A stretch of DNA of 64,000 bases from contig DEIN01000012.1 in the NCBI GenBank assembly GCA_002352465.1, forward strand, positions 17,484 through 81,483. The letters run 5' to 3'. Under the pieces are notes generated by a model, which was not told where the DNA came from, made no database searches, and saw only the letters and a program-made list of their open reading frames with translations. This document shows, in pieces, positions 10,909 through 48,223 of the stretch. A program made the position numbers and the translations under genes. This DNA comes from Patescibacteria group bacterium UBA2773 (GTDB lineage Bacteria > Patescibacteriota > Minisyncoccia > Moranbacterales > DUUL01). Within the stretch, counting starts at the first letter, position 1. The number at the start of each line of letters is the position of its first letter.

Positions 10909-11124
10909 AAAATTGTAAAAATTAATAAGTCACCAAAAAATGACTCTTTAAAAGCCTAACTAGAAAAATCTTTAAATATCATCTAAACAGACACCTAACT
11001 CTACATCAAAAAAACCACTTTGTCAAAGGCTCACTACCTTTAAATTTTATTTATAAAAAAATGATTCAAAATCAACGCGGTTTACCTTTTTTTAAATGCA
11101 AAAAATCAAATTTATCTTAAACCG

Positions 11125-30678: not shown

Positions 30679-32520
30679 TTAAGCCTCCCTTTTTTCCATT
30701 TTCATTCTTTGTGCTGGATTAGTAGTAATAATTTTATCTTCATTATAAGAAGCAACCACTTGAATAGCTGCTCGCTTATTACCAGCAAAAAATATTCCCT
30801 CTCCCACTTGAGTTTCCATTAGAAAATATTTTTCCTTGTCAGTTAAATAAAACGTATCAGCTACTACATCCACCGAAGATTTCGACTGTTTCATTAATAA
30901 CTGAATCGAGGAATTAGAAACAATCGCTTTTCCATGAGAAGACCCTAAAAAATCTGAAATATCTTGAGTAATAGTAGTCAGTCCTCCGTAATACTTTCTA
31001 ATTCGTTTTGCAATTGAAAATAAAAACTTAGCTCCATCTTCATGTTGCATCATCCACCAAGCTTCATCCACCGTAATTAATCTTTTTTTAACATTAAATC
31101 GAACTTCATTCCAAATATATTTTAAAATCAGATACATTGCAATTGGTCGAAGCTCATCTTCAAGATCCCGAATATTAAAAACAATTAATCGATTTTTCAA
31201 AATAATATTAGAAGGCTGATTTAAAAAACCCTTATAAACTCCTTGGGTATATTTTTCAACTCGCATCGCCAAGTTTTCTCCTCCTTGCATATTTTTTAAA
31301 ATCTCATGAAAATCTGTTAATAAAGGCATATTTTTATTTGGTAGTTCCTCTACTGCCGTTTCCTTGGTAATATCTCGAACTAAATAGGTTTCATGAATTG
31401 CTCGAGCTAAAACTGTGTCTTCTTCTGGAGTAATATTTCCTAACATTAACTTAAACAAACCAATCAAATCCACAGTGTTTGATCTTAAGATTTCCTCCAT
31501 ATTTTCTTCAGCATTAGCTTTTAAAGAAAAAGGATTAATATGATGAGAAGAATTCAAAGAAACTGAAATATAGCTTCCTCCGACTGCTTCAGCTAAATAA
31601 CGATATTCATCTTCTGGATCAATAATAATTGAATCTGTTCCCAGCATCAAAGACCGCAGAATTTCTAATTTTATCGTATAACTTTTTCCAGCTCCCGATT
31701 TAGCAAACACTACTGTATTAGCATTCTCCATCGAAAACCGATCAAATAAAATCAAAGAATTATTATGTTTATTAATTCCATACATAATCCCTTGATTAGA
31801 TGTTACATTAGAAGAAATAAAAGGAAAAGCCGTTGAAAGTGGAGCAGTATTAAGATCTGACCCAATCATCAACTTATCCGAACAAAGCGGAAGGCAAGAA
31901 TCAAACCCTTCTTTCATTCTAAATACGGCTTTTTTAGTAAAGATAGACATTGACTCTAAGGACGATTCTAAAATATCAGTATTTTTTTCTAAAACTTCTA
32001 AATCTTTAGCATAGATATTAACATATAGACCAAATTTAAAAACCTTTTCCACTCCTTCTTGTAGCTTGTCTCTTAATTCCTCCACATTGCGATAAGCCAT
32101 CTCTAATTCCGGACTTCGAACCAAGCCCTTCTCACTCTCAATATTAATTTGAGATTGAATTTGAGCTACTTTTTTCTTTAAAGTTTTCAAAACTTTATTC
32201 GTATTAATCGGATGAATGAAAAAAGCAATATCCATTGGTAAATCCAAAGTAATCATTCGATTAGACCAACCAATTGAAAGTATTCGAGGATAAGCTGAAA
32301 CAAAAATCGTCCGACAATAAACCTCTCCGATTTGCAAATAAGCGCTTGATACTCCAAAAGCAGCCGGCGCAATAAAATCCAAAACTCTCGTTAAGCCTTT
32401 TTGATAAACGTCTTCTTTATTTAGAATATCAATCACGCCATAATCCTGAGTTTTATTTTCTGGTTTTTTTGATATCAATTGTTTTTTCTTTTTTTCTTTT
32501 TTTTGAAATAATTTAAACAT
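30679..32520 (-). CDS. VirB4-like type IV secretion ATPase (Gram-positive TraE/PrgJ/TcpF-like)
   Basis: Walker A VVFAKSGAGKSYT, IIIDPEDEY (cf. VirB4 DPKGEY), Walker B LITVDEAWWMM; the N-terminal region resembles conjugative VirB4 proteins (IAPAAF...YCRTIFVSAYPR). Confidence 0.65.
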   Translation of the reverse strand: MFKLFQKKEKKKKQLISKKPENKTQDYGVIDILNKEDVYQKGLTRVLDFIAPAAFGVSSAYLQIGEVYCRTIFVSAYPRILSIGWSNRMITLDLPMDIAFFIHPINTNKVLKTLKKKVAQIQSQINIESEKGLVRSPELEMAYRNVEELRDKLQEGVEKVFKFGLYVNIYAKDLEVLEKNTDILESSLESMSIFTKKAVFRMKEGFDSCLPLCSDKLMIGSDLNTAPLSTAFPFISSNVTSNQGIMYGINKHNNSLILFDRFSMENANTVVFAKSGAGKSYTIKLEILRSLMLGTDSIIIDPEDEYRYLAEAVGGSYISVSLNSSHHINPFSLKANAEENMEEILRSNTVDLIGLFKLMLGNITPEEDTVLARAIHETYLVRDITKETAVEELPNKNMPLLTDFHEILKNMQGGENLAMRVEKYTQGVYKGFLNQPSNIILKNRLIVFNIRDLEDELRPIAMYLILKYIWNEVRFNVKKRLITVDEAWWMMQHEDGAKFLFSIAKRIRKYYGGLTTITQDISDFLGSSHGKAIVSNSSIQLLMKQSKSSVDVVADTFYLTDKEKYFLMETQVGEGIFFAGNKRAAIQVVASYNEDKIITTNPAQRMKMEKREA

Positions 32521-32537
32521 TTAAATTAATTATTTTA

Positions 32538-33197
32538 TTACTTTTCAAGATCAATTGACGAAATATTTTCTAAATTAACATATTCGAATTCAGATGGATT
32601 ATAGGAGTTATAATAAAGTTCGATTAATTCTTCAGTTTTAAGCATTATTCCATTCAAACCCATACCAGACAATGAAGAAGCCACTCTATCCACCCGTTGA
32701 AATAATTGACTCTTGTAAGTCTCAAAACTTTCATTATTTTGATATAAAACCTTTTTTTTATTGGCTACTGAAAATATTTTTTTAAAAACTCCTTGATTTT
32801 TAACTTCTATCATATAAAAGGGGATAACAATATAAAACATTTTAGACATCACATTTGACAAACCAATTAATTCCTCAATAAAATCTACATAATCTTTGAT
32901 TTGATTTTTCAACAAAATATTTTCTTCTAATCGAATCTTCTTTTTTAGTTGATCAACATAAGGATTAATATTAAACCGTCGAGAAGAAACCACAATTTGA
33001 AAACTAAAATCAAAAGTTGTTAAAAACTGTTGAAAATTGTAAATAATTGCTTGCTGTTCCTCTTCTGATTTCAAATCCATATTAATTGCTGTAGTCGCTA
33101 AAACCGCCCTCAAAGAACCGTCTTTCATTACGACTACGTCTTCTTTGATTTCAGCAATCTCCATTTTTTCTTGTAGTGAATTTTCACTCCCATTCAT
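32538..33197 (-). CDS. Hypothetical protein immediately upstream of the VirB4-like gene (possible separately encoded VirB4 N-terminal-like domain)
   Basis: 219 aa; VVMKDGSLRAVLATTAINMDLKSEEEQ...FDFSFQIV pattern is reminiscent of the VirB4/TrbE N-domain; 17-bp gap to the ATPase ORF. Confidence 0.3.
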   Translation of the reverse strand: MNGSENSLQEKMEIAEIKEDVVVMKDGSLRAVLATTAINMDLKSEEEQQAIIYNFQQFLTTFDFSFQIVVSSRRFNINPYVDQLKKKIRLEENILLKNQIKDYVDFIEELIGLSNVMSKMFYIVIPFYMIEVKNQGVFKKIFSVANKKKVLYQNNESFETYKSQLFQRVDRVASSLSGMGLNGIMLKTEELIELYYNSYNPSEFEYVNLENISSIDLEK

Positions 33198-33218
33198 AAT
33201 TTTATTTTTATTTATTGA

Positions 33219-33623
33219 CTATTCATAAATATCTAGAGATTGAATCGCCTTTTTAATCTCATTTGGATTAATTTTCTTTTTATTTTTTTTAACAATAATT
33301 TTTGGTTTTTTATCATCTTCTTCTAAAGGATTATTTTGATAACCTTTGCGCCAAATATAAATTTTGGGCTTAAAAGTGAAAAGAAAAGCGTTTTTGATAA
33401 AAACTGGCAAAGTCTGACCATAAGGTTTAACAAAAAGCACCGCCACTATAAAAATCGAAACAATTACCAGTATAATAATAAAATAAGTTTTTTCAAATAA
33501 AACCCAGGCAATAAAACTAAAAAAGCAACCCAAAGCAACCCAACCTAATTGCTTAGCAGTTAATTGAAACGCTATTTTATCTTCAATCCCAATAAATTGA
33601 GGTACTTCTCTTTGTCGACTCAT
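33219..33623 (-). CDS. Small two-TM membrane protein (candidate VirB3/PrgI-like)
   Basis: 134 aa; a hydrophobic hairpin near the N-terminus; position and size typical of VirB3/PrgI genes; no sequence motif to confirm. Confidence 0.3.
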   Translation of the reverse strand: MSRQREVPQFIGIEDKIAFQLTAKQLGWVALGCFFSFIAWVLFEKTYFIIILVIVSIFIVAVLFVKPYGQTLPVFIKNAFLFTFKPKIYIWRKGYQNNPLEEDDKKPKIIVKKNKKKINPNEIKKAIQSLDIYE

Positions 33624-33625
33624 TT

Positions 33626-34525
33626 TTAAATATAATTATTTAAATCTAAAACATTACTTCTTTTATCTTCCCTTTCATTTTCCTTTTTTTTGAAATTATT
33701 TTTTTTTACCGCCTTAATTTTAAAAGCTGACTTACTATCAACATCATGATAGGGCTTACTTTCAAATTTAGTAATATTAAAATTAGCTTTTGGTTTTTTG
33801 TTCTTTTCTAATAATTTTATTATTTCAAAATCAATTTGCTCAAACAACTTATTATAATAAGTAATTGCATTCCCCTCAAAAGCTTTTAAAATTATTGATA
33901 ACTCCTCTTTTTCTTCTGGATTTAATTGTTGAGCGTTTTTACTATTATACAAGTAATCACTGACATTTAAAATAGTGTTTTTCTGTTGGTCAGTTTTTCT
34001 TAAGCGATAATCAATAATCCAATTTTCAATCCAAGGTGCCTTACCTTCATTTTCTTTAGGAAAAAAAATTAATTGAACTCCAATTTCTTGTTGCCTAATT
34101 TCCGGAAATTTTTCTAAAAGTTCTTTAAAGTTCAAAACCACTAAATCTTCTTTAACTGCTTTAATTCCAATTTTTTTTATGGCTTCAATTAATTGTTTGA
34201 ATTCCACCAAAAAATCAATCGAAACAGTATTACTCAATTGAAATCTTTGGAAAATTTCTTTCTTCAATTGGTCTTCGCTCAGTTCCCCAGCCATAAAATT
34301 CCGAGTCAAAATCGCCACTCCCCCAATTTTCTCTGGAGAACTTAACTGATTTTTTTCCGCCAAAGTTTTTATTAAATTTTCCGTTTTTGTGCTAATCAAA
34401 CCATACCGAACATTCCGCGGTAATTTCTTTTTTTGCTTTTCCCAACGCTCTCGACTGTCTTCTTTTTTTAACAAGTCAACTGCCAAAGTCGGGTTAGCTT
34501 GATTAATTATTTTTAGCTCCTCCAT
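33626..34525 (-). CDS. Cytoplasmic hypothetical protein (T4SS-like cluster)
   Basis: 299 aa, no TM helix. Confidence 0.35.
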   Translation of the reverse strand: MEELKIINQANPTLAVDLLKKEDSRERWEKQKKKLPRNVRYGLISTKTENLIKTLAEKNQLSSPEKIGGVAILTRNFMAGELSEDQLKKEIFQRFQLSNTVSIDFLVEFKQLIEAIKKIGIKAVKEDLVVLNFKELLEKFPEIRQQEIGVQLIFFPKENEGKAPWIENWIIDYRLRKTDQQKNTILNVSDYLYNSKNAQQLNPEEKEELSIILKAFEGNAITYYNKLFEQIDFEIIKLLEKNKKPKANFNITKFESKPYHDVDSKSAFKIKAVKKNNFKKKENEREDKRSNVLDLNNYI

Positions 34526-34549
34526 TTTTTTATTATATCATCTTATAAT

Positions 34550-36637
34550 CTAAATAAATCCAGTTTTTTTCTTTTGTGCTTTAGGGGTTGTTTTTTGATT
34601 TAAATTAGTTGTATCTTTTTGACTTGCTAAAAAACCAGCCTTTATTTTTTTAGATTCAGGCGTTGTTTTTGAATCACTATTATTTTCGTCTTCTCCTAAT
34701 AAAAATTTACCCTTTCCTGTTTTTTCTGCTATTAAAAAATCACGCGCTTCGATATTTTTAATATTTTCAGCAAATTTTCTTCTTTCATTGATTTTTGTAT
34801 TTTGATTTTTTTCAAACAAATACTCTACCACACCAGGTTGTTCATAAAAACTTTTATTTTGATTTTTGATAATTGAACCAAGATTACCTTGAATATTTTT
34901 ATTGAAAATTTCTTTATCAACTCCTGCCATAGCACTAGCTTTATGATATTCCTTGCTTCCTCTTTTTAACCCATCAAAAGAATTATTCCCTTCTTTTATT
35001 TTTTCTTGAATTTTTTGATGTTTTTTATAATCAATAAAAGCCCCTAAATTTTCTCTTTTAGTTTCCCTAGTAATTTGTTCTTGAGCTGCTTTATCATCTT
35101 TTAGGTTCTCCATCGCTTTTTCATATTGATTATTTCCGCTAGCATCAACTCCTAATTTATTATTTTGAGATTTATACAAAGTTGCCGCCAAGTCTCCTTT
35201 TTCAAATAATTTATCCATCTCAACATCTGTAATTGGATCATCTTTCCATTTTTTAAGTTTCTCCTGAGCCTTACCTCTTTCATAACTTCTAGTTGCTGCA
35301 CCACCATCTCTTCCATATTTCTTTTTAGCATTAGCCACTCTTTGAGCTTGAAGATCGTCTCTTCCACTTTTAGTCAATCTTTTTGTTACAAAACTCCCTT
35401 TACCGTCATAATTTTTCACTCCGTGTTTAATTCCTTCTTTTACTGCCTCTCTTTGTTTTTTAAAAGTAGCAACAGAAGCAGCCCCATATCCAAACTTCTT
35501 AGCTGCTCTTCCAGTTTTATTTCCCCAAGCGCTAATTTTAGCACTCCCCGCTCCCAAAATCTTAGTAGCCATATCACTAGAAGTTTTTTTGGCTTGATCA
35601 TAACCATAAAATAATAAATAAATAACCGTAATATAAGGAATAAGCATTGAAAAAAGCTTAACCGCAAAACTTGACAATGCTCCCGAACCGGCTTTTATTT
35701 GTTCTGGGTTCATTGAAGAAAAAGGATCTATTCCCGCCTTCGTTGCTCCCACTAAAGCATCTAATAAAATTATCGCCAACCAGAAAAAAAACAACAAAAT
35801 CGGACCATAAAAACACCAACTCATTAAATTTTTTACCCAATCATCCTTCATTGAACCCAATTTAGTCCCCTCCATTGCAAAACCAAACATTGCCAAGGGT
35901 GATAAAATTATTAAAACCCAAAAAGAAATCATTCTAACAATCAAGCTAATCGCCAAATAAAACAACATTATTGCCATTATTATAGTCATTAAAATCACCA
36001 CTATAAGAATCACAAAATAAGCAAATTTATCACCAAGATTTCCGGGTGAAAGAATGTCATCAAAACTAATTAAATTTTGAAGTTGAGCCGTAAACGCCAT
36101 TTGTTGAATGGCATTAGCAAAAAAATGCATAAAAACTTGAGAAATATCAATCACAAATAAGGTCAAAGGTTTAGAGAAATTTATCAACATCGCCGCTATT
36201 ATCACTCTCATTAAGACCGTCTTGTCTTTAAATTTAGAAACCCCTAAAATTGTACTCAATCCCACTAAAACAATTATTAAAATAAAAAATAAATTAAAAA
36301 AATCCCGCACAAATGACCAAGCAGTGTTAATTCCCTCTTTAGCTACGGGTGAAAAAAAAACACCCGAAAACATCTCTGGTGAAATCATCGTATCCAACAA
36401 CCACATAGAACCTGCTAGTAACATTAAAGCTAACTTAAAAAATCCATATAAAATAGCATTAACCCCGGTTAATAAAGTATTACTAAAAAAACCACCTTCA
36501 CCACTACCACTTTTAAGTGTTTCTACAACATCACTTTGCGCTAAACAAAAATCACCAACTAAAAAACACCCTAAAAAAATTACTCCTAGGGAAAACAACC
36601 ATTTTTTGTTAATGTTTTTCTTTTTAAAAGCTACCAT
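34550..36637 (-). CDS. Polytopic membrane protein with signal peptide and long basic C-terminal tail (VirB6/TrbL-like)
   Basis: 695 aa; N-terminal signal, about 6-7 TM helices in the first 350 aa, then a Lys-rich disordered tail. Confidence 0.4.
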   Translation of the reverse strand: MVAFKKKNINKKWLFSLGVIFLGCFLVGDFCLAQSDVVETLKSGSGEGGFFSNTLLTGVNAILYGFFKLALMLLAGSMWLLDTMISPEMFSGVFFSPVAKEGINTAWSFVRDFFNLFFILIIVLVGLSTILGVSKFKDKTVLMRVIIAAMLINFSKPLTLFVIDISQVFMHFFANAIQQMAFTAQLQNLISFDDILSPGNLGDKFAYFVILIVVILMTIIMAIMLFYLAISLIVRMISFWVLIILSPLAMFGFAMEGTKLGSMKDDWVKNLMSWCFYGPILLFFFWLAIILLDALVGATKAGIDPFSSMNPEQIKAGSGALSSFAVKLFSMLIPYITVIYLLFYGYDQAKKTSSDMATKILGAGSAKISAWGNKTGRAAKKFGYGAASVATFKKQREAVKEGIKHGVKNYDGKGSFVTKRLTKSGRDDLQAQRVANAKKKYGRDGGAATRSYERGKAQEKLKKWKDDPITDVEMDKLFEKGDLAATLYKSQNNKLGVDASGNNQYEKAMENLKDDKAAQEQITRETKRENLGAFIDYKKHQKIQEKIKEGNNSFDGLKRGSKEYHKASAMAGVDKEIFNKNIQGNLGSIIKNQNKSFYEQPGVVEYLFEKNQNTKINERRKFAENIKNIEARDFLIAEKTGKGKFLLGEDENNSDSKTTPESKKIKAGFLASQKDTTNLNQKTTPKAQKKKTGFI

Positions 36638-36677
36638 TAAAGTTTATTTTTTATTTTTTTTATCAGAAAACTAAAAA

Positions 36678-37589
36678 TTATTTAGAAGTTCCAAATCCAC
36701 CATAAATCTTTTTTTGTAAACTATCCATTCCTTTATTATCATTAATAGTTCTTAGTTGGTTATCAATTGGTTTAGTCACATCAGCCACTCCTGTTTCTAT
36801 TGTCTTAGATAACATACCCGCTGCTACTGTCCCTATAATTTCCGCGGGTGATCGAGCTTGATTAATCATATCCATAAATAAAGTTTCTGTCTTAGTTGTA
36901 ATTCCAGCAATAACACTTCCTGGTAAATTAACTAGATTATTCTCAGAATCTTTTTTATTAATAAATCCCTGACCTACAATCGCTTCCACTTCTGCTTTTT
37001 TTTGAGCTTTAATCTCCTCTTCCTCTAAAATCATTTGGGCTCGCATTTGAACTCCAAAAGGATTATTCATATCATTAGTAGCCATCGCCATTACCGCTTG
37101 GCTTCCTCCTCCTTTGTTTTGATCAAAAACATTATCTATTCCGCCTTGAACATATTGATCAATCGTAGAAAGTTCACTTTCAGGTGATAAAAGTGCATCT
37201 TCAATATCATCATACATTGCCGCTGTATTATTATCTACTCCATCGCTTAAAGTTTTAAAAAAATCCCTAGTCTGTAGAGAAGCTTCCCTGTGAGCTGCTC
37301 CATAAATAAAATCATCATAATCCGTAATCACCAAAGGGTTTCCTTTTCCGGTTAATAAAACCCTTACCCGATCTCGAAGCAAATTATTAGCTTGTTGTTT
37401 TAAACTTTTTAACATTGCATCTAGAAAGGCCTGTCTAACTTCCACCCAAGCTTCATGCATAAGAATGGCTGGAAATTCACCCCAATAAGCTTGAGCTGGT
37501 TTATTAGAACTTAATACCCCTCCCAAACAAAACATAATTATTAAAACCAAGCTAAATACTTTTGTTTTTATTTTGTTTTTAATCAACAC
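36678..37589 (-). CDS. Secreted protein (hypothetical, T4SS-like cluster)
   Basis: 303 aa with N-terminal signal/anchor; no recognisable family. Confidence 0.35.
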   Translation of the reverse strand: MLIKNKIKTKVFSLVLIIMFCLGGVLSSNKPAQAYWGEFPAILMHEAWVEVRQAFLDAMLKSLKQQANNLLRDRVRVLLTGKGNPLVITDYDDFIYGAAHREASLQTRDFFKTLSDGVDNNTAAMYDDIEDALLSPESELSTIDQYVQGGIDNVFDQNKGGGSQAVMAMATNDMNNPFGVQMRAQMILEEEEIKAQKKAEVEAIVGQGFINKKDSENNLVNLPGSVIAGITTKTETLFMDMINQARSPAEIIGTVAAGMLSKTIETGVADVTKPIDNQLRTINDNKGMDSLQKKIYGGFGTSK

Positions 37590-37607
37590 TTTTATTTTTT
37601 TTATTTT

Positions 37608-38669
37608 TTAAGAAATGTTATCCAACATATCTTCACTAAAAACAGTAATTTCAAGTTCATCAACAAGACTTTCTATTTGATTTTTTACTTCTTCTCCTTC
37701 ATTTACAGCTGCTTGTAACTTACCAACATACAAAGCTATTGTCATTGGATCTTGTTGATCAATCAATTTCTCTTCATTAATGTTTTCAACTAAATATTTA
37801 ATAATCGACAACACTTTAATTTGAATATCTTTGGCTCTATAGGGAGTTTCTATCTCTAAACATTCTTCATATGTTTTTTCGGCATTTCTTTTTAAATCTG
37901 AGAGTTGTTCTATTTGTCCTGTTTGAACATTTTCATTTATTTCATTTATGTAAGCTACTGCTAATTGAGGAAGCAACTCTTGTTCTTCTATGGCGAAAGG
38001 TCTATTAGTGGCCATAATATAAAAAAGCTGAGTTAAATATTTTTCAACTTGTTCTTTTTCTTCTTTTTTTACTTTTTTCTCACTTCCGGTCACTTCTTCT
38101 AAAAGAATAATGTCATCTTCTGAGACTAAAGTCATTTCTTTTGCAAACTCTGAATCTTTATTGGTTTGATTAAGTATTTTCTCTAAATCCCCACTGGTTA
38201 ACGAGGTATTATTTAATATTTCTCTTTCTTCTTTGTTATTATATTTTTCTGGATTAGAATAATAATCATTCAACAATCCTAATTCATTGTTTTTTTCGCT
38301 TTGTAATTTTTCAAAAAAATCATCAGTTAAATTAGGTGTTTCTTCTTCGGTTTCAATTTGATTATTATCTTCCTCTGTTTTAAAAACAAGTTTATCACCA
38401 GGAGCTGGTTTCAAGGGATCAAAACCACTTTCAACTTCTATTCCGTCTCGATATCCATCTCCATCACTGTCTGCATTATTCACATCAGTTCCATACATAT
38501 ATTCCTCTTCATCTGTTAATTCATCTCCATCTCGATCGTGAAAAATATCAGATTTACTAAAATTAATATTACTTAAAAAAGACCACCAAAAAACCAAAAG
38601 GATCCCCAGAAAAACTAGGTTTTTATTTTCAATTAAACTAAAAAATTTTTTTTTGTTTATTTTTTTCAT
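37608..38669 (-). CDS. Secreted acidic protein with Asp-rich Ca-binding-like repeats (first gene of T4SS-like block)
   Basis: N-terminal TM/signal; DRDGDELTDEEE and DSDGDGYRDGIE repeats (thrombospondin-type-3/dockerin-like DxDxDG). Confidence 0.4.
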   Translation of the reverse strand: MKKINKKKFFSLIENKNLVFLGILLVFWWSFLSNINFSKSDIFHDRDGDELTDEEEYMYGTDVNNADSDGDGYRDGIEVESGFDPLKPAPGDKLVFKTEEDNNQIETEEETPNLTDDFFEKLQSEKNNELGLLNDYYSNPEKYNNKEEREILNNTSLTSGDLEKILNQTNKDSEFAKEMTLVSEDDIILLEEVTGSEKKVKKEEKEQVEKYLTQLFYIMATNRPFAIEEQELLPQLAVAYINEINENVQTGQIEQLSDLKRNAEKTYEECLEIETPYRAKDIQIKVLSIIKYLVENINEEKLIDQQDPMTIALYVGKLQAAVNEGEEVKNQIESLVDELEITVFSEDMLDNIS

Positions 38670-38781: not shown

Positions 38782-40410
38782 TTATAAAAAAATAACTTTA
38801 ATTATCCACAAGCTATAAATAAAAACTAACCCTAAAACCCAACTATTTATTTTTTTTTCACCAATTTTATCACCACTAACAATAATAAAGTTCAAAATAC
38901 CAAAAAATAAAGCACTTAGAAACAACTCTTGTTCGTGTAAAATATAAACTGATAATAAATAAAAACTAAACAAAAAACTCGCAATAATTAAACGAGTTTT
39001 TTTCCTACCAACCAGAACTACTAAGTTATAAATCTTGTCCTTTTGATCACCTTCTAAATCTTTTAAATCCTTAAGTGGAATTATAAAAAAATAAGCAAAA
39101 AATAAAAACCAGTAAATTTTCCAAGGAAAAAATTCAAGAGTTTCGCTTCCAGAAAAAACAATAAAACCCATCACCAAAAACAATAAAGAAGAAAAAGCAA
39201 TTAAAATGTTAGATATAATTAAAATTCGTTTAAATCTAAAAGGCGAACAAGAATAAAACCAAGTAAGACAATAATACAAAGAGACAAAAACCACAAACAA
39301 AGGTTTAATTAAAAAGGCTCCAACAATCGAGAACAAAGCAATAATTATATTTATTTTTTTATATTCCTTGATTGTTATTTTTTTTGTAATTAAGGGTCGA
39401 GAAGAATTAGAAATTTTATCCACAACCAAATCACTAATATCATTAACCAAAACAGAAGAAACCCAACTACAAAAAACTACTATACATAAAACTAAAACAC
39501 TAGAAATATTAAAAAAATTAAACTGAAAATTTTCATTGTAATTCAAAAAACCTAAAGCTAAACCCAAAAAAAGCAAACCCAAGTTAAAAAAAACTTGAGG
39601 TAAACGAACATTTCTTATTAAGACTATGTATTTTTTTTTATTTTTTAAAAAATATATAAGATTAATATTAACAAAAATCATCAAATAATAGATAATAGAC
39701 ATTTTTTTAGCTAAAAAAGTCTCTATTTCATTGTTATTTATTCCAAAAATAGAAAGGGGTGACATAAAATAACCAACAACAGTTGTTTTAGAAACATTTA
39801 AAATATTACCATTTTTAATAAATTCTAATCCAAAGGTTATTAAACTAGGAAGACTATTGAGAATAAAAAAAATAAAATAAACCAAAAAAGCAAATCCCAC
39901 TGTTTTTAAGATTTTTCTCTTTTTTTGAAAATAATAACAAGATAATAAAAAAACACTCAAAAAAACAAGCACTCGTCCACCAATCGTAATTCCCCAATTT
40001 AAACTATCTCCATAAAACAAAAAAAACCTCTCAATTAATCCTTTAGCACTATCAAAAAGATAAAAATTTTTATATATTCCCTCTTTAAATATTATTTTAT
40101 CAATAATTGGTGGTAATAAAATCAACCAAACACCGTAAAACAAAAAGTTTTTAGATTTATTAAATTCTTTTTTTATTAAAAACATTAGAAATATTAAAAA
40201 TACTGAATAGACAAACATTACTAATAAAAAATCGTTTACAAAAAAAACCAAATAAATAAAACCTTCTTTAATTGGAATATTATCTAAAAATATTTCAATA
40301 AAAAATCTTAACAAAACTATTCCAAAGAAACCAAAAAGCCAGGTGTTAAAATTATTTTTTTGATTTTCAATAATTGTAATAATATTTTTTATATTCAATT
40401 TTACTTGCAT
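38782..40410 (-). CDS. UbiA-superfamily prenyltransferase domain fused to a roughly 260-aa N-terminal polytopic membrane domain
   Basis: First Asp-rich motif NDISDLVVD (NDxxDxxxD) followed by SRPL; second motif DLKDLEGD (DxxDxxxD) about 120 aa later; about 7 additional N-terminal TM helices. Confidence 0.6.
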   Translation of the reverse strand: MQVKLNIKNIITIIENQKNNFNTWLFGFFGIVLLRFFIEIFLDNIPIKEGFIYLVFFVNDFLLVMFVYSVFLIFLMFLIKKEFNKSKNFLFYGVWLILLPPIIDKIIFKEGIYKNFYLFDSAKGLIERFFLFYGDSLNWGITIGGRVLVFLSVFLLSCYYFQKKRKILKTVGFAFLVYFIFFILNSLPSLITFGLEFIKNGNILNVSKTTVVGYFMSPLSIFGINNNEIETFLAKKMSIIYYLMIFVNINLIYFLKNKKKYIVLIRNVRLPQVFFNLGLLFLGLALGFLNYNENFQFNFFNISSVLVLCIVVFCSWVSSVLVNDISDLVVDKISNSSRPLITKKITIKEYKKINIIIALFSIVGAFLIKPLFVVFVSLYYCLTWFYSCSPFRFKRILIISNILIAFSSLLFLVMGFIVFSGSETLEFFPWKIYWFLFFAYFFIIPLKDLKDLEGDQKDKIYNLVVLVGRKKTRLIIASFLFSFYLLSVYILHEQELFLSALFFGILNFIIVSGDKIGEKKINSWVLGLVFIYSLWIIKVIFL

Positions 40411-40697
40411 TAGATTATGATTATATTTTTTATTAAAACCTCGTTTAAATTTTTATTTATTTTTTTAATAATCATTTTTTCATTAAGCTTAAATTCATTC
40501 CGCCAAGTCGAGTTTTTTAATTCAATCCATAACCTTCCTTTTTTATAGTCTTTGACTTCAGTAAATTTTTTACTAAGTTCACCAAATAATTCTTGTAAAA
40601 CCATTTCACTAGTTGAAATAATTAAATATTTATCATTTTTAATAATCTTTTTATTATTAACTCTTTTTTCTAAAACTTTTTGAAAATCTTCCCACAT
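40410..40697 (-). CDS. DUF721-like small protein (DciA-like helicase-loader candidate) downstream of dnaN
   Basis: 95 aa; conserved position after dnaN; C-terminal RLWIELKNSTWRNEFKL pattern resembles DUF721. Confidence 0.4.
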   Translation of the reverse strand: MWEDFQKVLEKRVNNKKIIKNDKYLIISTSEMVLQELFGELSKKFTEVKDYKKGRLWIELKNSTWRNEFKLNEKMIIKKINKNLNEVLIKNIIII

Positions 40698-40700
40698 TTT

Positions 40701-41843
40701 CTAATTTTTAATAATTGGCATAATAATATAAGAAAATTTAAAATCTTCTTTTTCGTTTTCATCTAAACCTTTCATTAGAGCTGGTGACTTCTCTTTGTTT
40801 AATTTTAAAATAACCCATTCTTCTTTAATTACACTTAAACCATCAATTAAATAATTACAATTAAACAAAATCTCAAAATCATCACCTAAAATATTAGCGG
40901 CTATTTTAGAGATATTTTCCCCTGCTTCATTGGAATAAGAACTTATTTCTAATTCTTTTTTATTTTTAAGATTACTAATTTTTATTTCACTATTGTTATC
41001 TCGAGAAACTAAGGATGCTATTTTTAGAGCATTTATCAACTCATTTCTATTTATTTTAACTTCAATAGAGTATTTTTTAGGTAAAATTTGTTGATAATCA
41101 ATATAATTTCCATTAATTAATTTTGAAATAATCTTAGTCGAATTATTTCCTACGAATAATTGATTTTGTTTTATTATTAAGCTTATTTCACCTTCAGTAA
41201 GATTTTTTTGAATTTCACTAAAGGTTAAGGCAGGAATTATAATCGAAGGAGTATTTTCTATAAAAATAAAATATTCCTCAGTTAAATTGTTTTTATTCAA
41301 ACTTATAACTACCTCACTTAATCGATAACCATCAGTTGAAGCCAAGATTAACCTGTCTTTTTTAAAAAGAACATTCACTCCGTTTAATTCTTGTCTAGTA
41401 TCATTTCGAGCTACGGAAATTAAAATATTAGAAATATTCTCAATTAAATCTTTAGAATTTATTTTAATATAACTATCCTCGGGATTTTCTGGAATTATTG
41501 GATAATCATCTAAACTCATTCCTTTAATTTTAATTTGATGTTTTTCGGTTTTTACTTGAAATTCATCTTTAATTACAAATCCTTCAATAATATCATCTTT
41601 AATATTATTTAAAAATCCGCTAACAACTCTAATCGGAATTGTAATTCCTCCTTCTTTGTTTATTTTAGCCTTAACAAAAGTTTTTACTGCTATTTCAAGA
41701 TTTGTTGAAGCAATTACTAATCTATTTTTATCAGTTTTAATTAATATATTACTTAAAATTGGTAAACTTGGGTTTTTTAAAAGAACCCTTTCAATTTTAG
41801 ATATTGCATTTCTAAAATTATCTCGCTTAATTGAAAATTGCAT
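40701..41843 (-). CDS. dnaN: DNA polymerase III beta sliding clamp
   Basis: MQFSIKRDNF N-terminus, 380 aa, three-domain clamp organisation, directly downstream of dnaA. Confidence 0.9.
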   Translation of the reverse strand: MQFSIKRDNFRNAISKIERVLLKNPSLPILSNILIKTDKNRLVIASTNLEIAVKTFVKAKINKEGGITIPIRVVSGFLNNIKDDIIEGFVIKDEFQVKTEKHQIKIKGMSLDDYPIIPENPEDSYIKINSKDLIENISNILISVARNDTRQELNGVNVLFKKDRLILASTDGYRLSEVVISLNKNNLTEEYFIFIENTPSIIIPALTFSEIQKNLTEGEISLIIKQNQLFVGNNSTKIISKLINGNYIDYQQILPKKYSIEVKINRNELINALKIASLVSRDNNSEIKISNLKNKKELEISSYSNEAGENISKIAANILGDDFEILFNCNYLIDGLSVIKEEWVILKLNKEKSPALMKGLDENEKEDFKFSYIIMPIIKN

Positions 41844-42060
41844 ATATATAATTAATTATTATTATTTAAATATTATTACTATTTATTATAGAGTCCAAAA
41901 TAGTGGAAAAGTCGGTTTTATCTTTTATTAGAAAGAAAAAACGTGTCAATAACCTTGTTTAAAAAACTGTTTAAAAAATCAAAAAAGGTTGTTCATAAAA
42001 AGTTGATAAATAATATTTTTTTAAAAACCAACAACTTATTAACAACTTATTTAGGGGTTA

Positions 42061-43464
42061 TTAATAGTCATTGTATTTTTCCCGAATAAATTTAATTTGA
42101 TCTTGTAAAAATTTATTATCCCCCAATTCTTTAATAATTTTTTTATGAGCATACATCACCGTTGAATGATTTTTACCACCCAAAAATATTCCAATTTCCG
42201 TAAAAGAAAGAGTTAAATCCTCTCTTAATAAATAAAAAGTTAATTGACGAGGCTTAATTACTGTTTTTTTTCGGCAAGAACCTAGAATTTCAGTGGTTTT
42301 TATATTAAAAAAATCTGCTACTGCCTTAACAATGGTTGTAGCCGTCACTTTACTTTGTCTATTACTGGAAATTAAATCCTCGGTTAATTCCATAACATCT
42401 TTTAATGTGGGAAAAACATTGCGAAGTTGATATGTGACAATTATTTTATTCAAAGCTCCTTCTAGTTCTCGAACATTGTGATAAATATTTTTTGCTAAAT
42501 ATTCAATAATTTCTTCGCTGAGATCGAAATTTTTTTCTATTACCTTTTTTTTAATAATAGCCAACCTAGTTTCTAAATCGGGTTTGCTAATATCAGCCAT
42601 CATTCCTCCTTCAAATCTTGATTTAAGTCGATTTTCTAGGGTTGGAATTGATTTTGGCGGACGGTCAGCACTAATAATAATCTGTTTATTTAATTGATAT
42701 AAAGATTCAAAAACATGAAAAAATTCTTCCTGAGTCTTCTCTTTCTTAGATAAAAACTGAACATCATCAATTATTAACATATCTAATTGAATATATTCAT
42801 TTTTAAACTCTTTAGCTTTGGAGTTTTGAATAGCCCCAATTAATTCATTAGCAAATCGTTCCATACTTACATAACGAATTTTAAAATCAGGATTTTGGGC
42901 TTTAATAAAATTTCCAGTAGCTTGAATTAGATGAGTTTTACCCAAACCAACATCTCCATAAATAAATAAAGGATTATAAGATTGTCCTGGCTTTTTGGAA
43001 ACTGACTGACAAGCAGCGTAAGCCAATTCATTATTAGCACCGATTACGTAGGTTTCGAATTTGTAACGAGGGTTTAATCCCGAACTAATATGGTTAGAGT
43101 TGCGGTTAAAAGAAGGAGTTTCTCGAAGACTTTTTTTGATGCTTTTTTTGAGTTTTTCTTTTAATTTTGATTTAACAATGACTGAATCCATTGATTTTTG
43201 AGGAAAAGAGGTTTTGTTCTGAACCTCTAAAGAACAAATTACCCGATTGATTTTGGGGAAATGTTTTCGAATGGAGTCTAATATTGTTTTTTGATATTTT
43301 TTTTCTAACCACTCTTTAGCAAAAATATTAGGGACAATTATTATTAGAGTATCCTCGGTTAAATCTTTTATAGAGGTGTTTTTGAACCAGGTAGTAAAAC
43401 TGGCTTTTGACAAAGAAAGTTCCACTTCTCCTAAAATAGCCTCCCAGAGTTCCTGTTTGTTCAT
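42061..43464 (-). CDS. dnaA: Chromosomal replication initiator DnaA
   Basis: AAA+ Walker A GDVGLGKTHL, Walker B LIIDDVQF, sensor motifs, and C-terminal DnaA-box-binding HTH (TFTEIGIFLGGKNHSTVMYA). Confidence 0.95.
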   Translation of the reverse strand: MNKQELWEAILGEVELSLSKASFTTWFKNTSIKDLTEDTLIIIVPNIFAKEWLEKKYQKTILDSIRKHFPKINRVICSLEVQNKTSFPQKSMDSVIVKSKLKEKLKKSIKKSLRETPSFNRNSNHISSGLNPRYKFETYVIGANNELAYAACQSVSKKPGQSYNPLFIYGDVGLGKTHLIQATGNFIKAQNPDFKIRYVSMERFANELIGAIQNSKAKEFKNEYIQLDMLIIDDVQFLSKKEKTQEEFFHVFESLYQLNKQIIISADRPPKSIPTLENRLKSRFEGGMMADISKPDLETRLAIIKKKVIEKNFDLSEEIIEYLAKNIYHNVRELEGALNKIIVTYQLRNVFPTLKDVMELTEDLISSNRQSKVTATTIVKAVADFFNIKTTEILGSCRKKTVIKPRQLTFYLLREDLTLSFTEIGIFLGGKNHSTVMYAHKKIIKELGDNKFLQDQIKFIREKYNDY

Positions 43465-43481
43465 TCTTTTTGTTTATAAAT

Positions 43482-43490
43482 TGTTGATAA
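43482..43490. promoter_or_regulatory. DnaA box-like 9-mer TGTTGATAA (8/9 to TGTGGATAA) just upstream of dnaA
   Basis: Seen in sequence. Confidence 0.45.
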
Positions 43491-43547
43491 CCCAGGTTAC
43501 CTTTTGAATAATACCTAATAAAAGGCAAGTTCTCAATGTTTATATAT

Positions 43548-43556
43548 TGTGGATAA
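43548..43556. promoter_or_regulatory. Consensus DnaA box TGTGGATAA (reverse complement of TTATCCACA)
   Basis: Perfect 9/9 match about 85 bp upstream of the dnaA start. Confidence 0.6.
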
Positions 43557-43801
43557 ACTGTTTAAAAATGTTATATTAGCATTACATTAATAGGGAAATA
43601 AGGCAAATTTTTAAAAAATAAAAGGTTTTAATTTAAAATAAAAAACAAATATTTCTCTTTACATAAATAATAATATGTGTTATAATGTTTAAATTAATTT
43701 AAGATTGTTTTTTGGCGGTTGATTTTCTTTTTTAAATTAGTTGAATTATTGGTTTTAAAAATAAACCAAATTAGTTTTTAATATAAAAAGAGTTAATTTA
43801 A

Positions 43802-44650
43802 TGTTTCACGTGAAACAAAATATTTTTTAAATTTAATTTTTAGATTATTATTGATATGTTTCACGTGAAACATAGTAGTCGTTATAAAAATTAAGTCTTT
43901 TATTATTAACGACTTATTTTTAATCGCCTAAGACACTATTTTTAGAACTTTTTATTTTTTAAAAAGATTTATTAATTAAATGTTTCACGTGAAACATTTT
44001 TAAAAAATAGAAACTAATTAATAAAACGTTTATTTCGACTGTTTTTATTCAAAAAAGCTTCAAATAAAAACCCTCAGCGAAATAATTTATTAATGTTTCA
44101 CGTGAAACATTTAATTAGAAAGAAAAAGTTTTATTTACTAAAAGCTTTTTTAAACAAGACCTGCTTAGTCTTAGTTTTTTGAATTTTAAAGAAAGTAAAA
44201 TGTTTCACGTGAAACATTTAGTAAAAAAAACTTTTTACTTAAGGATTTTTTAAACGAAGTTCGGTTTAATTTAATAGCCTTTTTGTTTTTTTGAAAACAA
44301 AAAATTATTTAGTGAGTTAAAATATATGTTTCACGTGAAACATATTAATAATAATTTAGGCGTTAGAATGTTAAAGATTTTTTGTTTCACGTGAAACATC
44401 TTCTTAAAATAAAAAGCAATAAAAAAGAGAAGATGCTTTTATTTTTTATTAAGAGAATAAGGATTTTACGGGTTTTAAGAAAAGTTTTTTAATGTTTCAC
44501 GTGAAACGTTTTTTGTTATTAAAATTAAATTGTTAGAATTTTATTTAAAATTCAAGCCTTAAGGATTGAGATTATTTTCTTTTAAATAAAAAAATTAACT
44601 GAACTTTTTGATTTTAAGAAAATTTATTAGAAGATGTTTCACGTGAAACA
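43802..44650. repeat. parS: Array of nine parS-type centromere palindromes TGTTTCACGTGAAACA in the dnaA-upstream (oriC) intergenic region
   Basis: Copies start at about 43802, 43857, 43981, 44094, 44201, 44327, 44383, 44493 (variant ending ...AACG) and 44635; 8 perfect and 1 single-mismatch; spacing 55-142 bp with unique flanks; matches the chromosomal parS consensus TGTTNCACGTGAAACA. Confidence 0.75.
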
Positions 44651-44753
44651 TTCCAAGGAAAATAGTTGAGCTTGTCCTCTTTACAAAAAGGCTATAACAT
44701 TGTATAATAAATTGACTTTAATTTAAAACTATGTTAAAAATTCCCATAGAGAT

Positions 44754-44826
44754 GGGCCTGTAACTCAATTGGTAGAGTGTTTCCATGGCATGGAAAAAGT
44801 AGTCGGTTCGATCCCGGTCAGGTCCA
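44754..44826 (+). tRNA. tRNA-Ala (anticodon GGC)
   Basis: Manual cloverleaf: 7-bp acceptor stem with the G3:U70 Ala identity pair, D-arm ACTC/GAGT, anticodon loop AUGGCAU, T-loop TTCGATC; no encoded CCA. Confidence 0.75.
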
Positions 44827-44883
44827 CTTTTATTGAAAGTCAAGAGTTTTTATTTTAAAAAAAATAAACTAAGTATTTAAAAA

Positions 44884-44955
44884 AGTCCTCATAGTTCAAT
44901 GGATAGAACAAAAACCTCCTAAGTTTTAGATCTAGGTTCAACTCCTGGTGAGGAC
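44884..44955 (+). tRNA. tRNA-Arg (anticodon CCT)
   Basis: Manual cloverleaf: acceptor GTCCTCA/TGAGGAC, anticodon stem AAAAC/GTTTT with loop CUCCUAA, T-loop TTCAACT; no encoded CCA. Confidence 0.75.
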
Positions 44956-45066
44956 ACATTTAAGGTAAAGGTTTAAAAAACTTACAAAGTGAAAGGCTTT
45001 TATTGAGCAAAAATCTTACTTTAAAAACTCTGAGGACTTTTTAGTTTTATAAATTAGAGCAATATT

Positions 45067-48198: not shown

Positions 48199-48223
48199 GG
48201 AGATTTATTAATTATTTTTCAAT

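Follow-up and report, generated by a model that had tools for sequence, protein, structure and literature searches.

A UbiA-type prenyltransferase fused to a conserved N-terminal membrane domain in Patescibacteria, and its possible role in envelope lipid synthesis

Introduction

Patescibacteria obtain and shape their membranes without making fatty acids or phospholipids, which poses the problem of how they do so. In a 64,000-nucleotide stretch of DNA from Patescibacteria group bacterium UBA2773 (hereafter the window), the genes dnaA, dnaN and dciA are followed by a gene which the first-pass annotation had described as a UbiA-type prenyltransferase carrying an extra N-terminal membrane domain. 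Both the fusion and the location of the gene had been regarded as non-standard. The locus therefore raises the question of whether this is a genuine two-domain enzyme, whether its location has a functional meaning, and what such an enzyme might produce.

Results

The reading frame and its boundaries

The gene and those preceding it are arranged as follows:

38782..40410, minus strand: ORF of 542 aa, six-helix N-terminal domain plus UbiA prenyltransferase (ORF list)
40410..40697, minus strand: DciA (DUF721; PF05258, 35.4 bits), upstream ORF of 95 aa (Pfam)
40701..41843, minus strand: dnaN (Pfam)
42061..43464, minus strand: dnaA (Pfam)

The frame is initiated by ATG and contains no internal stops. 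The TAA of dciA and the ATG of the 542-aa ORF share one A, as read directly in the sequence (...ATC TAATG CAA...). This overlap, together with the Pfam matches, bears out the earlier description of a 1-nt overlap with the DUF721 gene and of a place after dnaA-dnaN-DUF721. The 542-aa ORF is translationally coupled to dciA.

The N-terminal part might have been a separate ORF that an error in the sequence or an overlooked stop codon had joined to its neighbor, or the gene might be a decaying pseudogene. We found no support for an artefact of this kind, though some relatives are split (a frameshift in locus L091, and ORFs of 154 and 387 aa in L058). The frame is uninterrupted, the identical protein (P0001 of public collections) is present on several independent contigs, more than 150 divergent representatives have the same length and domain order, and conservation is strong in both halves. 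Because of these observations we consider this reading already refuted, with a negligible residual probability. The comparison of ortholog architecture proposed in the first-pass annotation led to the same result: in essentially all relatives a single ORF of ~540 aa encodes both domains, which rules out a missed stop or merged genes.

Promoter-like sites around the ORF were at background level (49 found, 45 expected), and a terminator scan from dciA to the 542-aa ORF revealed nothing convincing. DnaA boxes gave 30 matches against ~16 expected, without a clear cluster; two perfect boxes lie within the 542-aa ORF and were judged to be there by chance.

The C-terminal half has the fold and motifs of the UbiA superfamily

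38782..39639, minus strand: prenyltransferase domain of the UbiA superfamily with nine TM helices, aa 258-542 (PF01040, Foldseek, profile against PDB)
39391..39444, minus strand: Asp-rich motif 1, NDISDLVVDKISNSSRPL, aa 323-340 (N323, D324, D327, D331, R338-P339-L340)
39229..39255, minus strand: motif 2, Y386-x5-R392-x-K394 (YSCSPFRFK), aa 386-394 (conservation, DGGGPS correspondence)
39046..39072, minus strand: Asp-rich motif 3, KDLKDLEGD (D448, D451, D455), aa 447-455 (alignment, conservation)

The C-terminal domain, whose start is marked by a conserved junction motif (N267-x-R269-x-P), matched PF01040 with 88.6 bits over aa 299-510 (Pfam gathering threshold 34.2), and the same Pfam domain was present in 33 of the 34 homologues retrieved by a word-indexed protein search. 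Motif 1 (N-D-x2-D-x3-D, then R-P-L) lies in the cytoplasmic loop after TM2 and aligns with NDIFDIEIDRINKPSRPL of the digeranylgeranylglyceryl phosphate (DGGGP) synthase of M. jannaschii (MjDGGGPS), including residues N62, D66 and D70, the roles of which have been reviewed (PMC9385802); its conservation among 152 family representatives is 91-97%. Motif 2, the DGGGPS counterpart of which is Y125-x5-K130 (PMC9385802), is likewise well conserved in these representatives (Y386 95%, P390 97%, K394 84%). Motif 3 (D-x2-D-x3-D, after TM6) aligns with KDFEDMEGD of MjDGGGPS and is conserved at 93-95%. The match to PF01040 and the presence of all three motifs confirm the original assignment to UbiA-type enzymes with both Asp-rich signatures. 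The doubt raised at the time, that the Asp-rich motifs might not be conserved in orthologs, is removed by values of 93-97% across the 152 representatives.

The AlphaFold2 model of the complete protein (pLDDT 88.7, pTM 0.88) agrees with this assignment. In Foldseek comparisons with solved structures, the C-terminal half matched 6m31, 4tq3-6, 4od5, 8j8j and 8djk with a probability of 1.0, and the target-normalised TM scores to 6m31, 4tq3-6 and 4od5 (0.58-0.75) identify it as a nine-helix UbiA fold. The profile scored 70.5 bits against DGGGPS, 69.2 against AfUbiA and 52.2 against ChlG among PDB sequences, and none of the curated NCBIfam subfamily models reached its cut-off with this domain (the best gave 74 bits, cut-off 269). 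The module is thus nearest to the DGGGPS / AfUbiA / chlorophyll-synthase group and is an ortholog of none of them. As judged from the alignment, it has lost none of the residues by which DGGGP synthase is known to bind Mg2+ and prenyl diphosphate, and established UbiA topology together with the charge distribution places its active site on the cytoplasmic side.

At three positions that are conserved in the family, the protein encoded in the window has a different residue (N59, N462 and V464 in place of H, T and P, respectively), and it has RPL-I-K-K after motif 1, where RPL-P-S-G is usual.

The N-terminal half is a conserved membrane domain without a detectable relative

39640..40410, minus strand: N-terminal membrane domain, aa 1-257, without known family
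39973..40113, minus strand: best-conserved stretch of this domain, aa 100-146 (PPIID...FY.FD...G.....GIT.G.R)
40294..40308, minus strand: membrane-embedded charged pair R35/E39 in TM1 (model helix 21-43)

The structure prediction suggested for this part was carried out. The AlphaFold model contains an amphipathic helix (2-15) followed by six TM helices (approx. 21-43, 50-79, 83-108, 143-164, 167-200 and 229-256); the earlier description as a polytopic membrane domain therefore stands, with the count corrected from about seven helices to six. For the whole protein 15 TM helices are predicted, with the N-terminus inside and the C-terminus outside. The K+R counts per loop in 152 relatives fit this orientation, with the long conserved loops outside.

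The best-conserved stretch runs from the end of TM3 across a long loop on the outside to the beginning of TM4, and the loop is poor in net positive charge, which is consistent with an outside location. Among the 152 representatives, conservation reaches 97% for P101, 99% for D104, 98% for Y117 and 99% for G144, with Y178 and P188 also in the 98-99% range; R35 and E39 are conserved at 95% and 89%. In the aligned sequences, the N-terminal module is thus conserved as strongly as the catalytic site. The invariant polar residues R35, E39, H59 (present in most members), D104 and Y117 are predicted to lie in the outer half of the membrane and in the outside loop, a placement that rests on the model and on the positive-inside rule.

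The original statement that the N-terminal part has no recognizable motif was supported, since searches against Pfam and NCBIfam at permissive thresholds returned only scattered single-member noise (EpsG, GtrII, DUF6962, DUF7649). The domain is neither a degenerate duplicate of the UbiA fold nor akin to the Lycopene_cyc proteins encoded next to some relatives (hhalign probability 0.3% in both cases). Candidate stand-alone forms were also rejected: P0057 is truncated where its contig ends, and P0041, the one inspected candidate that lies inside its contig, proved to be a full-length gene with a frameshift. The module was found solely in fusion with this type of UbiA domain and has no detectable relative, solved structures being the basis of the fold comparison.

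The fusion is the normal form of a large family

A search with the N-domain profile retrieved 1450 clusters at 50% identity, the best 150 of which are nearly all 520-560 aa long. In the word-indexed protein search the same profile gave a single match, as hydrophobic words saturate the candidate list. A locus search with a narrower alignment (A3) identified 130 relatives in GTDB species genomes. Most members of the family are from Patescibacteria (here Moraniibacteriota), and others come from Omnitrophota, Cloacimonadota, Eisenbacteria and DPANN-labelled bins. Because of the number of clusters and the nearly constant length of the top matches, we conclude that ultra-small (CPR) bacteria have a large and hitherto undescribed protein family, the members of which are normally two-domain fusions of ~540 aa. 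The view that the fusion is not standard fails accordingly: this architecture is essentially invariant in a family for which 1450 clusters and 130 GTDB relatives were retrieved. In the literature searched we found no description of the fusion protein.

The location behind dnaA-dnaN-dciA is clade-specific

GC skew in the window stays below zero as far as 42 kb and is above zero from 44 kb onward, and this change of sign, together with the switch of gene strand, places the origin just beyond dnaA. DciA is encoded directly upstream of the family gene in ~10 of the 77 related loci, all from close relatives, with overlaps of 1, 4 or 8 nt in seven of these ten. More distant relatives (31-34% identity) adjoin ksgA, UvrD or a type IV secretion block, and ksgA (44 of the 77 loci) and the TSP3/type IV secretion block (38-42) are both commoner neighbors than DciA. 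According to a published study, dnaA, dnaN, ksgA and the type IV secretion cluster generally lie close together in the origin region of Patescibacteria (PMC12102498).

The linkage to dnaA, dnaN and dciA is limited to close relatives and therefore does not indicate functional membership in a replication operon. The location noted in the first-pass annotation was correct, while a functional significance of it was not upheld. The arrangement is clade-specific and belongs to a conserved block close to the origin, in which ksgA and the type IV secretion genes are found as well; with its start/stop overlap, it probably gives co-expression but no role in replication. A false lead is thereby removed, as the placement behind dnaA-dnaN represents origin-proximal gene order.

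The type IV secretion neighborhood

Downstream of the family gene lies a co-directional block:

30679..38669, minus strand: type IV secretion system (T4SS) block (Pfam matches, comparison with loci L003/L004)
37608-38669, minus strand: TSP3-repeat protein (Pfam)
after the TSP3 gene, minus strand: proteins of 303, 695 and 299 aa
33219-33623, minus strand: 134-aa protein, relatives of which carry PrgI (matching gene in L003/L004)
32538-33197, minus strand: 219-aa protein, relatives of which carry a TraC-like domain (matching gene in L003/L004)
30679-32520, minus strand: VirB4 (Pfam)

This block is the patescibacterial (MPF-FATA-like) T4SS cluster, and it is a recurrent neighbor of the family.

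Isoprenoid genes around relatives

Pfam analysis of the 38 largest ORFs, and tblastn with polyprenyl synthase, Lycopene_cyc and geranylgeranyl-reductase-like (GGR-like) queries, detected no partner isoprenoid genes in the 64-kb window. Neighbors of this type occur in only ~10 of 80 loci, and take several forms: (i) a polyprenyl synthase, which is the divergent neighbor in a Doudnabacteria (L061) and a Saccharibacteria (L063) locus and is accompanied by IspH in an Omnitrophota locus (L073), (ii) Lycopene_cyc (PF18916) pairs or fusions directly downstream of the gene in three Moraniibacteriota loci (L022, L041, L056), (iii) GGR-like flavoproteins (L027, L054), and (iv) a CMAS/UbiE-type methyltransferase encoded after the family gene (L004/L012). 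In addition, a CrtC/AttH lipocalin (P0139) or TPR domains (P0178, L066) are fused at the predicted outside C-terminus of some members. The isoprenoid neighbors and the CrtC-like fusion, scattered as they are among relatives, point to an isoprenoid-lipid role for the family. In view of CPR metabolism, quinone, haem or chlorophyll roles are unlikely in a Patescibacterium.

Discussion

The reading that we favor, and hold to be rather probable, is that the gene encodes a single-chain, 15-helix membrane prenyltransferase of an undescribed UbiA subfamily, in which the N-terminal module handles the lipid product and the enzyme as a whole serves the envelope lipids. A polyprenyl synthase would supply an all-trans prenyl chain, which the UbiA module would transfer, at the inner face of the membrane, to a lipid-like acceptor (probably an isoprenoid or a glycerolipid). 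The N-terminal module could then bind, process or hand over the prenylated lipid at the outer face, the final product being an envelope lipid of these host-dependent bacteria.

Alternatively, the protein could act in the manner of DGGGP synthase. A glycerol-phosphate lipid or a scavenged lysolipid would receive a geranylgeranyl-type chain, giving an archaeal-type or mixed membrane lipid in bacteria unable to make fatty acids. MjDGGGPS is the best match among solved structures (E 9e-9 with the single sequence, 70.5 bits with the profile), all three DGGGPS motifs are present, and GGR-like reductases (L027, L054) or trans-polyprenyl synthases (L061, L063, L073) adjoin the gene in some relatives; moreover, FCB bacteria and one Parcubacteria genome are reported to contain DGGGPS homologues (PMC7852524). 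However, the equivalog models are far from reached (NF009521 43.1 bits, cut-off 296; NF009522 29.9, cut-off 353), comparable scores were obtained for AfUbiA (69 bits) and chlorophyll synthase (52 bits), and true DGGGPS enzymes have ~280 aa and no extra domain. In the Pfam families of 128 neighbor proteins, the 25 commonest include neither GGGPS/PcrB nor a G1P dehydrogenase, and neither was found in the 64-kb window. We regard this identity as possible but unlikely. An activity like that of lycopene elongases is more doubtful: as in the pathways to C50 carotenoids, an acyclic isoprenoid chain would acquire a new C-C bond at its terminal double bond, and the end group would then be completed by partner cyclases or hydratases. 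It would account for the Lycopene_cyc pairs, or their fused form, immediately downstream in three Moraniibacteriota loci, and for the C-terminal lipocalin of one member, which has the fold of carotenoid 1,2-hydratase. Yet Lycopene_cyc occurs in just three of 80 loci and is absent from the window, no phytoene synthase or desaturase (crtB/crtI) was seen among the neighbors, and no curated lycopene-elongase model is among the NCBIfam matches; Patescibacteria are not known to make carotenoids.

Two further proposals concern the cell surface. As a T4SS accessory, the enzyme would make a lipid for assembly of the apparatus or lipidate a surface component, e.g. the adjacent TSP3-repeat protein. T4SS genes are found within the fetched flanks of 42 of the 77 loci, TSP3 is a direct neighbor in two orientations (10 co-directional downstream, 25 divergent upstream), and the block also adjoins the family gene in Doudnabacteria (L061) and Parcubacteria (L075). 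Both gene sets belong to the generally conserved origin-proximal region, though, and the linkage may therefore be inherited gene order (PMC12102498). The same T4SS survey does not mention UbiA (PMC12102498), the Omnitrophota, Cloacimonadota and Eisenbacteria loci lack this T4SS in their fetched flanks, and in ~11 Moraniibacteriota loci UvrD and other genes lie in between. We consider such a function improbable. In our opinion very improbable is a glycan-carrier enzyme of the DPPR-synthase type. Inside the cell, its UbiA module would link polyprenyl phosphate with a sugar-phosphate donor, and the N-terminal domain would use or flip the lipid-linked sugar outside. The predicted topology, with a conserved Asp/aromatic loop facing outside and a membrane-embedded Arg/Glu pair, would suit it; proteins that use lipid-linked sugars are encoded in the window (a PMT_2 GT-C enzyme, a GT2 and two Wzy_C proteins), and Foldseek matched the DPPR synthase fold.

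The favored reading, an envelope-lipid prenyltransferase, can be extended further. The N-terminal module might be a new lipid-processing or translocating domain of the outer leaflet, obligately coupled to a prenyltransferase at the cytoplasmic face, so that the protein would constitute a self-contained "make and present" machine, the product of which would be a prenylated envelope lipid. With this lipid, lipid-auxotrophic Patescibacteria, and also some Omnitrophota, FCB bacteria and DPANN archaea, could reshape membranes that they scavenge or construct the cell-surface interface that serves their origin-proximal T4SS. We offer this extension as a speculation that is distinctly unlikely to hold in full.

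The family defined here is a large, strongly conserved and unannotated group of membrane enzymes, in which a UbiA module with intact catalytic motifs, nearest to the archaeal ether-lipid synthase, is combined with a fused domain without known relative. With it, Patescibacteria have a concrete candidate, amenable to cloning, for a pathway to isoprenoid-based envelope lipids, and its N-terminal domain can be added to family databases as new.

Comparison with known systems

The DGGGP synthase of M. jannaschii (PDB 6m31/7bpu) shares with the family the nine-helix UbiA fold and the aligned motifs N-D-x2-D-x3-D, Y-x5-K/R and D-x2-D-x3-D. Identity is only ~20%, however, and the protein described here has RPL-IKK in place of RPL-PSG and an additional six-helix domain of 257 aa. 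AfUbiA of Archaeoglobus fulgidus (PDB 4tq3-4tq6) is similar in profile score (69.2 bits) and in fold over the whole C-terminal half, but is a single-domain protein of ~300 aa; its own substrate is unknown, so no function can be transferred from it. ChlG/BchG (PDB 9sau) gave the second-best NCBIfam match (61 bits) and has a motif 3 of the same K-D-x-x-D-x-E-G-D type, whereas the scores remain below the cut-offs (NF005742 61 bits, cut-off 313; TIGR01476 47.9, cut-off 212.3) and ChlG lacks the N-terminal six-helix domain. Patescibacteria are not known to have a tetrapyrrole pigment pathway. Decaprenyl-phosphate phosphoribosyltransferase (Rv3806c type; PDB 8j8j) also has the UbiA fold and Asp-rich motifs, but its profile score is 33 bits, its donor is a sugar diphosphate and not a prenyl diphosphate, and it carries no extra domain.

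The lycopene elongase systems differ from the family in that the N-terminal domain has no homology to the Lycopene_cyc neighbors (hhalign 0.3%) and the association is rare. In these systems (CrtEb with CrtYe/Yf, LyeJ with CruF, and the LbtBC fusion of Dietzia), small membrane proteins of the Lycopene_cyc domain type are the partners of a UbiA-type enzyme. The gene arrangement of crtEb with crtYe/Yf is mirrored by the Lycopene_cyc loci of three relatives, and the systems provide a precedent for the fusion of a UbiA-type enzyme to its membrane partner.

Location of the ORF and the putative replication origin

The 542-aa ORF encoding the two-domain UbiA protein is a single open frame, and its upstream neighbours (listed below) could be named with Pfam. 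The first-pass annotation had placed it behind dnaA, dnaN and the DUF721 gene (dciA) with a 1-nt overlap, and this was confirmed: in the sequence TAATG, one base is common to the dciA stop codon and the ORF start codon.

Genes and sites around the ORF and in the T4SS-like block (window coordinates, strand)
44754-44957: tRNA-Ala and tRNA-Arg
43482 and 43548: two DnaA-box-like sites near dnaA
42061..43464, minus: dnaA (Bac_DnaA, 228.8 bits), upstream of the ORF
40701..41843, minus: dnaN (three beta-clamp domains), upstream of the ORF
40410..40697, minus: dciA/DUF721, 95 aa (PF05258, 35.4 bits), upstream of the ORF
38782..40410, minus: the 542-aa ORF (ATG start, no interruption)
37608-38669, minus: TSP3-repeat protein, T4SS-like block
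34550-36637, minus: 695-aa polytopic protein, T4SS-like block
33219-33623, minus: PrgI-like, named after its counterpart in loci L003/L004
32538-33197, minus: TraC-like, named after its counterpart in L003/L004
30679-32520, minus: VirB4, T4SS-like block
29510-30178, minus: CPBP/Rce1-like protease, T4SS-like block
11125-13563, minus: VirD4-type coupling protein, T4SS-like block

The GC skew turns from negative (up to ~42 kb) to positive (from ~44 kb), and the coding strand, mostly minus to the left of dnaA, is plus just to its right. Given these two changes at dnaA, the chromosomal origin likely lies just beyond this gene, within 42000-44750, which would place the ORF 3-5 kb away from it. The ORF itself contains two perfect matches to the DnaA-box consensus TTATCCACA (38802-38810 and 39416-39424); only six occur in the entire 64 kb, and the two inside the gene are probably there by chance.

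The G+C content of the window is 22-36%; this composition and the nearest relatives assign it to the Moraniibacteriota within the Patescibacteria. Its co-directional minus-strand block (11125-38669) resembles a patescibacterial type IV secretion system (T4SS), and several large ORFs of this block (950, 873 and 370 aa) gave no Pfam match. The window is also predicted to encode a GT2 glycosyltransferase with two Wzy_C (O-antigen-ligase-like) membrane proteins in tandem behind it (22378-25549, plus) and, elsewhere, a PMT_2-type GT-C enzyme (1188-2831, plus); together these indicate surface glycan assembly that relies on lipid-linked sugars. Behind the gene of a CCA-adding enzyme lie two MFS transporter genes in tandem (46981-49429, plus), an arrangement that also flanks dnaA in L001 and L003.

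Gene order in relatives

ORFs were called in 80 loci of relatives, and four neighbours on each side were clustered, which revealed three dominant arrangements. Type A, that of the window (dnaA-dnaN-dciA-ORF-TSP3-T4SS), is represented by L007-L014; these eight loci all belong to relatives with 36-70% identity. In type B (~25 loci), the same T4SS block, whose first gene encodes the TSP3-repeat protein, lies upstream in divergent orientation, and ksgA and the genes of a G5/DPBB protein and ComM lie downstream in convergent orientation. Type C (~11 loci) has UvrD upstream and ksgA downstream. Two further loci (L029 and L054) carry dciA directly upstream with different genes downstream; where dciA is in this position, start and stop overlap by 1, 4 or 8 nt in 7 of the 10 loci. 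The most frequent neighbour is KsgA (44 loci), and T4SS genes were present inside the examined flanks of 42 of 77 loci, including one of Doudnabacteria and one of Parcubacteria.

According to a 2025 survey (PMC12102498), the patescibacterial T4SS cluster is commonly origin-proximal, in the vicinity of dnaA, dnaN and ksgA; neither the text of the survey nor the supplements available mention a UbiA gene. A link to replication, as the position at the tail of the dnaA-dnaN operon might imply, is not borne out, since dciA is upstream in 10 loci, other arrangements are common and the surveyed block is origin-proximal. On the most parsimonious reading, the ORF is part of this conserved block and became attached to dciA through a rearrangement specific to one clade. 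A functional connection with the T4SS may exist, but the gene order can be explained without it.

Size, architecture and distribution of the family

A profile of the N-domain only (aa 1-257), searched against 1.84 billion cluster representatives, matched 1450 proteins at E<=1e-3, of which 1086 passed E<=1e-10. Almost all of the best 150 of the 1450 are 520-560 aa long, and no true stand-alone N-domain was seen among the shorter matches inspected: P0057 is cut by a contig end and P0041 is a frameshifted full-length gene. The fusion, which had initially been taken for unusual, is therefore the rule, and the ORF represents a large, conserved, unannotated family of two-module membrane enzymes centred on Patescibacteria. 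Some members carry additions at the predicted outside C-terminus, namely a CrtC/AttH-type lipocalin (P0139) or TPR repeats (P0178 and L066).

A GTDB scan, with one genome for each species, yielded 130 confirmed relatives and 80 loci, both lower bounds, since the scan relied on two peptide patterns. The loci are mostly from Moraniibacteriota, which also include the nearest relatives of the window protein; other labels are Parcubacteria/Paceibacterota, Doudnabacteria, Saccharibacteria, Omnitrophota, Cloacimonadota, Eisenbacteria and Edwardsbacteria, besides two archaeal-labelled bins (Woesearchaeota included). Many records titled "uncultured Bdellovibrionales bacterium" (L007, L012, L015, L019, L020 and others), as well as individual records under the names Micavibrio, Undibacterium or Acidobacteriaceae, nevertheless hold typical Patescibacteria loci with dciA, the two-domain UbiA family and a CPR-type T4SS; these MAG taxon labels look wrong.

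Paralogues of the same length and with the same N-domain, from which all Asp-rich motifs and the PF01040 match have been lost, were found in tandem with an intact gene in L054 (3263-4891, plus) and as P0033. Such copies could act as non-catalytic partners or be in the course of decay. Tandem paralogues with C-terminal TPR domains occur in Omnitrophota/Cloacimonadota (L062:7807-10002 and L066:11698-14160). In the complete Moraniibacteriota chromosome CP064994.1 (L058, ~10000-11645) the family gene reads as two pieces (154 aa and 387 aa); the gene is truly disrupted, or else the break comes from a frameshift error.

The N-terminal domain

The AlphaFold2 model of the ORF product, built with 27 homologues as input, is confident (pLDDT 88.7, pTM 0.88). 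It places an amphipathic helix (aa 2-15) before six TM helices (aa ~21-43, 50-79, 83-108, 143-164, 167-200 and 229-256) with two long loops (aa 109-142 and 201-228). Sixteen N-domains matched no Pfam/NCBIfam family even at E<=10, and Foldseek gave no match below E=1. Comparison with the UbiA half by hhalign gave a probability of 0.3%, so the N-domain is not a divergent duplicate of it. Conservation, computed from 152 full-length representatives aligned with MAFFT, is 95-99% at R35, P101, D104, Y117, G144, Y178 and P188, as high as that of the catalytic aspartates. The N-domain is thus a separate, strongly conserved membrane domain for which no method tried gave a relative.

Per-loop K+R counts in the 152 sequences obey the positive-inside rule for an N-in, C-out protein with 6 + 9 helices; loop 163-169 has 2.9 K+R versus 0.03 D+E over 7 residues. 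This topology agrees with the cytoplasmic position of the Asp-rich loops of UbiA proteins. With this topology, the model would put the invariant polar residues of the N-domain into the outer half of the bilayer or the outside loop 109-142, so that the extra domain appears to face the cell exterior.

The UbiA domain and its possible function

PF01040 matched aa 299-510 with 88.6 bits (cut-off 34.2), and the C-half of the model matched solved UbiA-superfamily structures with a Foldseek probability of 1.0. The conserved N267-x-R269-x-P junction is part of this domain, which therefore starts near residue 258. Three positions conserved in the family are altered in the window protein (aa 59, 462 and 464; window 39036-39038, 39030-39032 and 40234-40236): N59, N462 and V464 take the place of H, T and P, which 81%, 95% and 82% of the family have there, respectively. 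P0002, 70% identical, shares N59 and retains T-L-P.

The ORF product reached the cut-off of none of the NCBI curated subfamily models: the top match, archaeal prenyltransferase PRK12884, scored 74 bits (cut-off 269), ChlG 61 (313) and DGGGPS (NF009521) 43 (296). The UbiA assignment of the first-pass annotation, upheld by the Pfam match, the fold and the three motifs described below, therefore holds at the superfamily level, and the protein is not an orthologue of any characterised enzyme.

No obvious supplier or user of prenyl diphosphate was found within the 64-kb window. In about ten loci from various lineages the family gene has isoprenoid-chain enzymes encoded next to it. The divergent neighbour in L061 (Doudnabacteria) and L063 (Saccharibacteria) is a trans-polyprenyl synthase (PF00348), which also occurs with IspH, two to three genes off, in L073 (Omnitrophota). 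Geranylgeranyl-reductase-like flavoproteins are near the gene in L027 and L054, and a CMAS/UbiE-type methyltransferase in L004/L012. In three Moraniibacteriota loci, Lycopene_cyc-domain (PF18916) proteins, a pair of ~100-145 aa or a fused 242-aa form, are encoded immediately downstream, between the prenyltransferase gene and ksgA (L022:4017-4745, L041:11702-12496 and L056:11535-12294, all minus). These were unexpected in organisms that are not known to make carotenoids. Together with the CrtC-like fusion, this gene context suggests that the enzyme uses a prenyl diphosphate as donor and an isoprenoid or lipid as acceptor, and gives no hint of a quinone, haem or pigment role.

The only solved protein matched by sequence was the DGGGP synthase of M. 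jannaschii (MjDGGGPS; E 9e-9). The family profile scored highest against DGGGPS (70.5 bits), followed by the A. fulgidus UbiA homologue (69.2), chlorophyll synthase (52.2), DPPR synthase (33.2), ApUbiA (24.2) and UBIAD1 (19.7). Mutagenesis of MjDGGGPS has shown that three motifs matter (reviewed in PMC9385802), and all three have counterparts in the ORF product: N323-D324-x2-D327-x3-D331 followed by R338-P339-L340, Y386-x5-R392-x-K394, and D448-x2-D451-x3-D455. They are 84-97% conserved among the 152 representatives, and the active site of the UbiA half is, as judged from these residues, intact. Possible reactions are ether-lipid O-prenylation, as in DGGGPS, chain-end C-prenylation, as in lycopene elongase, or something new.
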